DNA of 64,000 nt from a virus: IMG/VR virus record IMGVR_UViG_3300017917_005108, positions 1 through 64,000 of that record. The stretch is one strand, 5' to 3'. The position numbers were made by a program, and so were the translations under genes. A model generated the notes under the pieces. The model was not told where the DNA came from. It searched no databases and saw nothing but the letters and a program-made list of their open reading frames with translations. Shown here piece by piece: positions 1 through 8,075 of the stretch. Position 1 is the stretch's first letter, and each line of letters opens with the position of its first letter.

Positions 1-235
1 CAATGCATGGACGGGTGGCACTGTATCAAACACCTTGGGTGAGTTTTTAGCCCAAGATAATCAGCTCACTTCCAGTGCTGTCAATTCAATTCTGGCAGCA
101 TTTGTTGCTGCAAATAAGACTACTGGAACCAGAATTTTAAATTTAGGAGGCACAGGCAATGCTGCACCCACAGGGGCAGGAATAACAGACAAAGCTACTC
201 TTGTGTCCAGAGGCTGGACAGTAACCACAAATTAA
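1..235 (+). CDS. C-terminal fragment of a phage tail/LRR-cap protein (5' end outside window)
   Basis: Frame open from position 2; ends NQLTSSAVNSILAAF...GNAAPTGAG...LVSRGWTVTTN, a C-terminal cap seen on phage LRR proteins. Confidence 0.55.
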   Translation, partial: NAWTGGTVSNTLGEFLAQDNQLTSSAVNSILAAFVAANKTTGTRILNLGGTGNAAPTGAGITDKATLVSRGWTVTTN

Positions 236-282
236 TATGAAAATTTATTCCAATCAAAATGTAAATACAGAAAATAATGCAT

Positions 283-688
283 TGGAGCTGGCGGGAATTG
301 AACCCGCGTCTTGAATAATTTCACTCACAGGCACTACAAGTTTATTTTAGTTATAATTTCATGAGGATTAAACTAAACAAAAAGCCCTCATTCATAACAA
401 TTTTATACATACAATCTATTAATTGTTATAACCCAGATTATACGGAAACTAGTAACACGCTCCATTTTACAAGCTTCAATCTACAATGGAACGATTGAGC
501 TTAAACTAGCTCAAGTGTGGCTTCTGTGTCCACAAAGCCAGCTGCTGCAAGAATTGCATCAGCCTCTTCGAGACTCATAGCCATGTCGAAGTTGTCTTCG
601 GCATTTAATATGATTGCTATTTTATACTGGCATGCCCCAGTACTTGCACTCATGAACTCCACCATTCAATCGATACCTTTACAGCCCC
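283..688 (-). ncRNA. ssrA: tmRNA (one-piece, 406 nt, CCA not encoded)
   Basis: 5' GGGGCTGTAAAGGTATCGA at 688; 3' GACGCGGGTTCAATTCCCGCCAGCTCCA at 283; acceptor stem GGGGCTG/CAGCTCC with G3-U alanine determinant; resume context TTAAAT-GCC; stop TAA sits at the loop of hairpin TTGAGCT..AGCTCAA. Confidence 0.95.
501..602 (-). other. tmRNA tag reading frame (A)AEDNFDMAMSLEEADAILAAAGFVDTEATLELV*
   Basis: Manual translation from resume codon GCC (600-602) to TAA (501-503). Confidence 0.85.
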
Positions 689-706: not shown

Positions 707-738
707 TTGATTATATTTTATGCGCATTATATAATCAA
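707..738. promoter_or_regulatory. Overlapping bidirectional sigma70-type promoter (tmRNA / gmd)
   Basis: TTGATT-N17-TATAAT on both strands within inverted repeat TTGATTATA...TATAATCAA. Confidence 0.7.
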
Positions 739-746
739 GTATATTT

Positions 747-1757
747 ATGGCGAAGAAAGCTTTGGTCACAGGTATAACAGGTCAAGATGGGTCCTATTTA
801 GCAGAATTACTCTTAGAAAAAGGTTATGAAGTGCATGGTCTTATAAGAAGGTCTTCATCTTTTAATACAGATAGAATAGAACACCTCTATAGGGACAAAC
901 ATCAAAAAGATACTAAACTATTTTTACATTATGGGGATTTAAGTGATAGTAATGTGCTAATAAAATTGCTGGAAAAGATAAAACCTGATGAAATTTATAA
1001 TTTAGGTGCACAGAGTCATGTAAGAGTTAGCTTTGATATCCCTGAATATACAGGTGATGTTACAGGATTGGGTACAATTAGATTTTTAGATGCTATTTTA
1101 AATGTGTGCCCAACTGCAAAGTTTTATCAAGCCTCTAGTTCTGAAATGTTTGGTTTAGTTCAAGAAGTTCCACAAAGAGAAACAACACCTTTTTATCCAA
1201 GAAGTCCTTACGGTGCAGCCAAAGTATATTCTTACTGGATTACAGTTAATTATAGAGAAAGCTATGATTTGTTTGCTTGTAATGGTATTCTTTTTAACCA
1301 TGAAAGCCCTAGGAGAGGTGAAACCTTTGTTACACGTAAGATTACACGTGCTATAGCAAGAATTAAAGCAGGGTTGCAGGATAAACTATATCTTGGTAAT
1401 TTAGATGCAAAAAGAGATTGGGGTTATGCAAAAGATTATGTAGAAGCAATGTGGTTAATGTTGCAACAAGATAAGCCTGATGACTATGTTATTTCTACAA
1501 ATGAAACACATAGTGTGAGAGAGTTCTGTGAAAAAGCATTTGGTTATGCAGGGTTAGATTGGCAAAAATATGTTGCTTTTGATCCGGCTTATTTAAGACC
1601 TGCAGAAGTAGACTTATTAATAGGTGATTATTCAAAAGCAAAAAAACAGCTTGGATGGGAACCCAGGGTTAAGTTTGATGAATTAGTTAAAATTATGGTA
1701 GATGCTGATATTAATCAATTATCTAAAGAAATGTCTGGTAATAGCATTAGAATTTAA
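747..1757 (+). CDS. gmd: GDP-mannose 4,6-dehydratase
   Basis: [52 protein letters not shown] motifs. Confidence 0.97.
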
Positions 1758-7658: not shown

Positions 7659-7683
7659 ACATTAATATTTATTCTAAATAAAA

Positions 7684-7899
7684 TTAGTTGTCCAGATCCT
7701 CGTAACTGTCTGTGTCTGTATAAGCTGAATTAATAAAAGAAATATTTTCCATATCTCTTGAGCCATATTTCATAATTTTGATTAAATAATCTAGTTCAAT
7801 TTCATTGAGGTATAAAATGCCAACCTCTTTTTCATCTACTAAAACAGATATATGAAATGCGGTATCAGAACCGCCAGAATTCTTTAATTCAAACTTCAT
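7684..7899 (-). CDS. Hypothetical protein
   Basis: 71-aa ORF, ATGA-coupled to upstream ORF. Confidence 0.55.
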   Translation of the reverse strand: MKFELKNSGGSDTAFHISVLVDEKEVGILYLNEIELDYLIKIMKYGSRDMENISFINSAYTDTDSYEDLDN

Positions 7900-8075
7900 T
7901 TATTATTGTTTACTGAATTTAAAATAGATAGTAGCTTATCATAAACCCCACCAACTGTAGTGAGATCACCAGCTCTAAAAATACCTTTCGTAGAACAAGC
8001 TTCAATAAGAGTAGCTATAACTTTAAGGTCACTTAATGTTAAATTTGTGGTTAGCTCAGTGGTTTCTTGATTCAT
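7896..8075 (-). CDS. Small phage protein (59 aa, absent from ORF track)
   Basis: MNQETTELTTNLTLSDLKVIATLIEACSTKGIFRAGDLTTVGGVYDKLL...; fills gap, ATGA overlap with next gene; resembles a small myovirus family. Confidence 0.7.
   Translation of the reverse strand: MNQETTELTTNLTLSDLKVIATLIEACSTKGIFRAGDLTTVGGVYDKLLSILNSVNNNK

Follow-up and report, generated by a model that had tools for sequence, protein, structure and literature searches.

Phage tmRNAs have been known since 2003, when the tmRNA of mycobacteriophage Bxz1 was described (PMC4131195). They are found in approximately 2.3% of phage genomes (PMC9004378) and are also present in huge phages (PMC7162821). In the case of the marine myophages (Melnitz, pelagimyophages and cyanophages), the tmRNAs have been proposed to sustain translation or to tag host proteins (PMC9004378). 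As a rule, phage tmRNAs are counted among the accessory translation genes, and their function is assumed to be that of the host copy. In cellular tags, the last three residues, LAA, are the critical determinant for ClpX; a DAS end minimises ClpX binding, and the engineered DAS+4 tag is degraded efficiently only with tethering by SspB (PMC9382460). Some E. coli tag variants accept Val as the last residue (AAV), and the longer tag of Mesoplasma has been re-specified for Lon (PMC9382460). The reading frame of the tag is set by a conserved A at position -4, shortly after pseudoknot 1 (PMC2481249).

We read the tag of Bxz1 with ARAGORN from NC_004687: it has 25 residues, is acidic and Ala-rich, and ends in ALV. 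A long acidic phage tag with an LV end has a precedent in Bxz1. In the literature searched, we found no functional study of the Bxz1 tag and no published discussion of such long phage tags. Here we describe a phage tmRNA with a still longer tag. The window, the whole stretch of 64,000 nucleotides that was analysed, makes up positions 1 to 64,000 of an IMG/VR record of 162,497 bp, which is rated 77% complete.

The tmRNA gene, its relatives and its carrier

ARAGORN called one tmRNA in the window, the coding part of which lies at positions 87-188 of the gene (window 501-602). Rfam RF00023 matched 282-688 (-) at full length (model positions 1-374) with 96.3 bits (E = 2.7e-36), against a gathering score of 47 bits. 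Thus, the intact phage tmRNA proposed in the initial annotation was called as a full-length gene by both programs. The gene, at 283-688 (-), is the sole tmRNA of the 162,497-bp record and does not encode the 3' CCA. Its features are as follows, all on the minus strand.

710-738 (-): candidate sigma-70-type promoter, TTGATT-17 nt-TATAAT, approximately 22 nt upstream of the mature 5' end
283-688 (-): complete one-piece tmRNA (ssrA), from ARAGORN and Rfam RF00023
669-688 (-): 5' end, with the acceptor 5' strand (GGGGCUG, containing G3) and a D-loop-like segment, from Rfam
616-647 (-): pseudoknot 1 region; the stem pairs covary, and the region is usable as a tag-independent search pattern
603-608 (-): frame-setting UUAAAU, with U at -5 and A at -4, abutting the resume codon
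504-602 (-): tag frame of 33 codons, from GCC (600-602) to Val33 (504-506); a six-frame profile search delimited exactly 504-602
534-575 (-): conserved tag core, codons 10-23, from invariant alignment columns; read as a capped amphipathic acidic helix
501-503 (-): stop codon TAA, in the loop of helix 5
494-515 (-): helix 5 hairpin with the stop codon in its loop; the last tag codons make up its 5' strand (RNAalifold)
283-310 (-): T-arm and 3' strand of the acceptor stem, with the U opposite G3, from the Rfam alignment and covarying acceptor and T-arm pairs

The alanine-identity G3:U pair is kept in a 7-bp acceptor stem, in which GGGGCUG pairs with CAGCUCC. In one family member (L040, 2148-2318 +), the 5' start is apparently GGGCCAG instead of GGGGCUG, and this may alter the G3:U pair. 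The candidate promoter has 10 of 12 consensus matches and lies in an AT-rich spacer, in which the consensus scan gave 10 sites against 4.0 +/- 2.2 in shuffled sequences. The T-arm and acceptor strand at 283-310 is the sole part that is similar by BLAST to bacterial tmRNAs. Within 669-688, the GUAAAGGU segment is not conserved among the relatives described below, and this explains why a search with the exact 19-nt 5'-end pattern found no relatives. The resemblance of the GTAAAGGT segment to tmRNAs of the PVC group had been taken as a weak clue to the host; because the segment varies freely within the family, we do not retain this clue.

Relatives were collected with two patterns. For the first, tag residues 1-8 were back-translated, and a search of viral contigs with the resulting pattern gave 19 contigs. 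The second was independent of the tag (helix 2 to pseudoknot 1), was validated on 20 of 20 copies and gave 10 further members; three other matches of this pattern (L035, L043 and L045) were rejected as chance matches inside a protein gene. The RNA family, hereafter the LELV family, comprises 30 viral contigs, with RNA identities of 65-87% outside the tag. Rfam found a full-length tmRNA at 17 of the 19 loci of the first set, the remaining two being truncated by the locus end, and the scores of the relatives were 84.6-106.9 bits.

It should be mentioned that ARAGORN called only 3 of the 30 family tmRNAs (2 of 19 in the first set and 1 of 13 in the second, the latter with a wrong internal resume codon), while the 30 were shown to be complete by Rfam or manual reading (loci L002-L020 and L034-L046). 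Because ARAGORN misses most members, surveys based on this program, including that which gave the figure of 2.3%, probably undercount phage tmRNAs.

Among 24 distinct family sequences, RNAalifold showed compensatory double changes in 31 of 81 consensus base pairs, including those of helix 5 and the downstream stems. The placement of the stop codon in a hairpin loop, which had been noticed at the outset, was borne out by this comparison: the loop is that of helix 5, and its stem covaries across the relatives. The RNA is intact, phage-borne and under structural constraint.

Among the genes of the record are those for a baseplate wedge protein of the T4 type, long tail fibres, a tail sheath, the large terminase, the portal, a major head protein, a DNA polymerase and a helicase. 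Judged by this gene content, the carrier is a T4-like myovirus, lytic in type. Identity between its major head protein and those of cyanomyoviruses is no more than 32-34%, so the phage belongs to a deep T4-like lineage without a cultured relative. Genes for dCMP deaminase and GDP-mannose dehydratase adjoin the tmRNA. In the window's record the tmRNA lies 282 bases from the contig end; in relatives, there are phage genes on both sides of it. The tmRNA is also internal in two LELV-family relatives rated complete, one of 217 kb (tmRNA at 35 kb) and one of 230 kb (tmRNA at 198 kb). No tyrosine integrase was found in the window's record or in two others (G001 and G002). The partial ORF at the contig edge (window 2-235, +) has 77 residues and ends in GWTVTTN; it matched neither Pfam nor PHROG, and the related loci contain no homologue of it.

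The surroundings of the tmRNA gave no candidate for a partner protein: among the contexts inspected no gene consistently travels with the tmRNA, and the small conserved genes upstream of it in relatives belong to no informative family. A tRNA-Met gene lies 10-20 nt upstream of the tmRNA in six relatives (L002, L012-L014, L017 and L018). The only tRNA gene of the window's record, also tRNA-Met, is at 159,242-159,316 (-), at the opposite contig end, and the local gene order has thus been rearranged. One of these relatives, a 158-kb record (L018) flagged as a provirus by IMG/VR, has a group I intron (Rfam RF00028, 70.9 bits) at 7675-7911 (-), approximately 3 kb from the tmRNA.

We found no SmpB gene in the window's record or in seven related phage records, four of which are rated complete, and no ClpP in the three LELV-family records searched. 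Because the phage has no SmpB of its own, the tmRNA must use host SmpB and could compete for it, as had been suggested. The reader of the tag, in turn, would have to belong to the host or be an unrecognised phage protein.

The tag frame and the wider class of long tags

In the 27 distinct RNAs, the resume codon is GCC in all and A at -4 is present in all, while U at -5 is present in 23. Rfam aligns the GCC of the window to the consensus resume codon. The conservation of the peptide also begins at this codon: A1 is fixed, F5 and D6 are invariant, and the region upstream is unconserved. The internal resume codon that ARAGORN chose in one relative was rejected, since it is an Ala codon in only 13 of the 27 RNAs and has no conserved upstream context. 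The use of another resume codon, which was named in the initial annotation as a result that would speak against it, was not supported; GCC stands at this site in 27 of 27. We regard it as close to certain that the gene is a functional tmRNA, the 33-codon frame of which would be translated.

The tag read by ARAGORN is exactly the one given in the initial annotation: it has 33 residues with nine acidic and no basic residues, and ends in LELV. Its start follows the pattern A-x-x-N-(F/V)-D, which resembles that of ordinary bacterial tags. The canonical tag of the ClpXP type has approximately 10 residues and an LAA or AA end; the tag of the window has neither. All 30 family copies have a 33-residue tag with an (L/F)ELV end, except for one stop-loss copy. 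In this copy (L034, 13214-13315, -), the stop TAA is changed to TAC, and the tag runs to LELVY before TGA; it is the only tag of the class with an aromatic last residue among the matches listed.

We counted pairwise codon differences over codons 9-33, which lie outside the constraint of the first search pattern. In frame, there were 700 synonymous and 449 non-synonymous differences. When the frame was shifted by +1, the numbers were 148 and 983, and by +2, 77 and 978. The numbers of variable columns at the first, second and third codon positions were 9, 5 and 16. Nineteen of the 33 tag positions are invariant, including E31, L32 and V33. The last four codons double as the stem of helix 5, so part of their conservation is an RNA constraint. 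However, synonymous changes at these codons (GAG/GAA and CTA/TTA) are compensated on the opposite strand of helix 5, and thus both RNA and peptide are constrained there. The comparison of codon substitutions shows selection at the peptide level on the frame of 33 codons and on its ELV end.

As had been expected, the long frame is maintained in all 30 related tmRNAs, and the excess of synonymous changes is present in this frame only. Comparison of tags among related phages likewise showed that the end without Ala-Ala, E31-L32-V33, stays invariant through synonymous changes. In contrast, an LAA buried within the tag, to which attention had been drawn, is not a property of the family: an internal LAA occurs in 5 of 21 distinct tag variants, and the others mostly have LAQH, LAQY, LAST or LATA instead.

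An alignment of the 21 distinct LELV-family tags was made into a profile and searched against 1.84 billion proteins. There were 24 matches, most of which are small ORFs laid by gene callers over the tags of other tmRNAs. Two matches (P0004 and P0021) were judged to be spurious; both come from repeat proteins in which a segment partly resembles the tag. The matches share a core, M-A-(M/P)-S-(L/V)-x-E-A-D-A-(I/V)-L-A-x-x-G-(F/W/Y). With Ile also admitted after the Ser, this core within the tag frame of a one-piece tmRNA defines the class, and the tag of the window carries it. The endings of the profile-match tags are AVAA, LAVA, LALA, AALV, ALV and ELVA.

A scan of the viral collection with the core gave 73 loci, 45 of which were new. 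The new loci have tags of 30-31 residues, mostly ending in AAVAA or AAMAA, and Rfam confirmed a tmRNA in 8 of 8 sampled sister loci and in one metagenome contig. The same scan of the metagenome collection gave at least 120 contigs, and the class comprises at least 145 loci in phage and metagenome contigs. Among the matches listed there are 67 distinct core-to-stop peptides: 31 are of the ELV type, 18 end in AA and the rest have other small hydrophobic ends, the last residue being V or A in 66 of the 67. It should be noted that the DNA pattern fixes the core residues, and hence the invariance of the core in the sister loci partly reflects the way in which they were found; it is the profile search that supports the core without this bias.

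Outside the tag, RNA identity between the two main families falls to 34-47%. Codons of both blocks, AGY (28) and TCN (31), are used for the invariant Ser. The core is shown, at the level of these sequences, to be common to very divergent phage tmRNAs. We read the motif as an S-x-x-E capping box followed by a hydrophobic I/V-L pair and then Gly and an aromatic residue. AlphaFold2 predicted a helix at tag residues 11-20 with moderate confidence (mean pLDDT 66.7).

The tag had no match in deposited phage genomes (tblastn), in the PDB (phmmer) or in a protein feature atlas. When the tmRNA of the window was compared with deposited phages by blastn, only a 30-nt T-arm match to mycobacteriophage tmRNAs was obtained, and a sister tmRNA gave no match.

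The sister tmRNAs have the same long acidic core with canonical AVAA, AMAA or ALAA ends. Because the same core occurs with Ala-Ala ends, length and acidity are not in themselves a device for avoiding ClpXP. The long core is a common invention of the class and LELV is a derived ending. The point of interest is a common helix with two alternative endings and not the length of the tag as such.

With respect to gene order, the GDP-mannose 4,6-dehydratase gene at window 747-1757 has homologues (median identity 42%) near the tmRNA in many sister loci (L063-L107). A homologue of the record's gene at 121,222-122,211 is likewise found near sister-family tmRNAs. Although weak, this synteny recurs. Two sister-family genomes that are complete and have terminal repeats carry the tmRNA at 64 kb and 168 kb.

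Proposed reading of the tag and possible fate of tagged proteins

The distinct tag, the strong peptide-level selection and the motif common to diverged RNA bodies together point to a specific molecular reader. With such a reader, the virus would deliberately control how ribosomes are rescued and what becomes of incomplete proteins. The tag is most likely a bipartite signal, which consists of a docking helix and a short hydrophobic end. We propose the following sequence of events. During infection, the phage tmRNA would be charged with alanine by the host, and host SmpB and EF-Tu would bring it to stalled ribosomes. Translation would resume at GCC (window 600-602), and the stalled chain would gain the 33-residue tag specified by the phage. 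The conserved acidic helix would then most likely dock onto a reader, which might be a host adaptor, a host AAA+ protease or an unrecognised phage factor. The short hydrophobic end of the tag, a canonical Ala-Ala degron in the sisters, has been replaced here by the fixed E-L-V. The ELV end would weaken direct recognition of the ClpX type, and the fate of the tagged protein would depend on the reader of the helix. By analogy with tethered degradation, what becomes of tagged proteins may have come to depend on this reader in the LELV branch. Because some E. coli tag variants accept a last Val, LELV might still be a usable degron. As a whole, a working phage tmRNA that appends a helix-plus-end bipartite tag, with the fate of LELV-tagged proteins set by the helix reader, is our best explanation, and we hold it with moderate confidence.

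A wider form of this proposal is that several unrelated lineages of large phages have a common acidic tagging helix, which they append by hijacking trans-translation, for one conserved reader from the host or the phage, and that LELV has been uncoupled from Ala-Ala and ClpXP. We offer this form tentatively and regard it as more doubtful than the explanation for the LELV family itself. If it is true, phages themselves set the fate of every protein that leaves a stalled ribosome, by conditional degradation, sequestration or blocking of a protease.

Another explanation, which the initial annotation had put forward beside a re-routing to other proteases, is that the phage rescues ribosomes without destroying the product. 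LELV would then not be a degron, the tagged chains, including truncated phage proteins, would be spared, and the helix would keep them soluble. The invariant ELV has no residue in common with LAA at the three critical positions, the tag is strongly acidic (9 acidic and 0 basic residues), and no phage-encoded protease was found when ClpP was searched in three LELV-family records; all these observations agree with sparing. However, solubility leaves the near-total invariance of 19 of 33 positions and the conservation of the helix on all faces unexplained. Moreover, sisters with the same core keep Ala-Ala, which suggests that the core evolved in the setting of a degradation tag, and the ends are still small, hydrophobic and degron-like, with A or V last in 66 of the 67 distinct tags listed. 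We therefore consider sparing to be unlikely.

The next explanation to be weighed is that the tmRNA of the host has an equivalent long tag, and that the phage copy only boosts normal trans-translation. Long tags are known in some bacteria, for example in Mollicutes (PMC9382460). Furthermore, the class-wide profile was run on a part of bacterial diversity, 401 genomes of the Bacteroidota, the phylum suggested by translation signals in the whole record. A Shine-Dalgarno sequence precedes 7.6% of its 144 ORFs as compared with 5.5% of random windows, and is thus essentially unused; this hints at a Bacteroidota host. In addition, 20% of the start codons have a TAAATA box no more than 16 nt away, as compared with 0.8% at random, and boxes at this distance would fit T4-type late promoters.

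When the start pattern of the LELV-type tag was scanned over 185,579 species genomes, there were 4 matches, none of which was in a tmRNA. In the 401 Bacteroidota genomes, the tag profile gave no match, with a positive control of 5 of 5, and the BLAST matches to the tmRNA were confined to the 28 nt of the T-arm and acceptor end. The bacterial tags that we read with the same tool were short (9-10 residues) and ended in AA. Thus, an equivalent bacterial tag, which in the host would have counted against the initial annotation by its own terms, was found neither in the scan of 185,579 genomes for the tag start nor in the 401 Bacteroidota genomes.

The contexts of the class that we inspected were all phage-like. 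One has a tail-fibre collar gene, and others have a family-A polymerase with UDG, homing endonucleases, a SNF2 helicase, a sigma factor, T5orf172 or a gp15-like gene. Ten clusters of tag ORFs that were looked up came from metagenome sources only, and no metagenome contig among the matches listed exceeded 230 kb. In view of these results, a host counterpart of the tag seems improbable.

To about the same degree, we think it improbable that the tmRNA acts in sabotage, by out-competing the host tmRNA for SmpB while its tag blocks a host adaptor or protease and is itself little degraded. Phage proteins would thereby be shielded, or proteolysis in the host altered. Without a phage SmpB, competition for the host protein is unavoidable, and a docking helix with a weakened end is what would be expected of a tight-binding poor substrate. 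It has also been suggested that the tmRNA of phage DS6A, which consists of the tRNA-like domain only, may titrate SmpB (PMC4131195). However, the Ala-Ala tags of the sisters would be degraded, so that a decoy would not be the ancestral function.

The bipartite tag also has to be set against the view that the frame encodes a small protein of 27 residues, which starts from the in-frame ATG at codon 7 and for which the tmRNA is the messenger. Gene callers predict such ORFs in metagenomes, and ATG is present at codon 7 in all family members. Nevertheless, conservation starts at the GCC resume codon (A1, F5 and D6) with none upstream, and the unbiased profile matches have K or F instead of this Met. 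All tmRNA features and the A at -4 are retained; Shine-Dalgarno sequences are not used, and there is no late TAAATA box at the usual distance of 5-7 nt. The probability of this view is very low. Lower still is that of an inert passenger, a captured host ssrA or attachment-site remnant without function in the phage: ssrA is a common integration site of prophages and its fragments occur in phage genomes (PMC9004378), and the gene lies 282 bases from a contig end, but its full length, covariation and purifying selection across 30 copies already contradict this idea, and its internal position in complete genomes, the absence of an integrase from the three records searched and the T4-like, lytic type of the phage speak against a prophage attachment-site fragment.

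Comparison with described tmRNAs

The tmRNA of the window shares with canonical SsrA a G3:U pair in the tRNA-like domain, predicted pseudoknots, an Ala resume codon preceded by A at -4, and a stop codon in the loop of helix 5. The start of its tag resembles the canonical A-N-D-E-N-Y. Unlike canonical SsrA, its tag is three times longer, contains an inserted conserved helix and ends in ELV instead of LAA; the gene is encoded by a virus without SmpB, and CCA is not encoded.

In Mollicutes (Mesoplasma florum and Mycoplasma), a longer tag with a non-LAA end marks a switch of the reading protease to Lon (PMC9382460). These tags are cellular and co-evolved with the loss of ClpXP, and they have no sequence resemblance to the tag of the window, the carrier of which is a phage.

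The marine myophage tmRNAs are likewise found in T4-like aquatic phages (PMC9004378). However, they are circularly permuted two-piece RNAs of the alphaproteobacterial or cyanobacterial type, some with a glutamine riboswitch, whereas that of the window is a one-piece RNA. No bacterial relative of this one-piece tmRNA was found in the genomes searched.

Bxz1 and the cluster C1 mycobacteriophages share more with the present system: a one-piece tmRNA in a large lytic myovirus, with a long acidic tag that ends in LV. The Bxz1 tmRNA lies within or near tRNA genes, as is the case in several LELV-family relatives, and its tag is unlike the short bacterial tags. We compared the Bxz1 tag with the class profile. 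The score was 3.2 bits, and 266 of 4,963 composition-matched shuffles scored as high. We therefore rejected homology of the Bxz1 tag to the class; the likeness is one of length, acidity and LV end only. In contrast to the tag of the window, the Bxz1 tag does not have the S-x-x-E...G-aromatic core, and both the phage lineage and the host differ.

The closest system is the sister family with tags of 30-31 residues (for example, L064 and L102). Its members have the same architecture and core in a one-piece tmRNA, are carried by large phages without SmpB, and often have a GDP-mannose dehydratase homologue near the tmRNA, as in the window. They differ in the Ala-Ala end, in Pro for Met before the Ser and in Trp for Phe after the Gly. 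The RNA bodies of the two families are 34-47% identical, which is near background, and the phages are distant, their ribonucleotide reductases being 23-29% identical. Because AVAA and LELV ends are placed on one core, the two families provide a natural comparison that could separate tethering from degron recognition.
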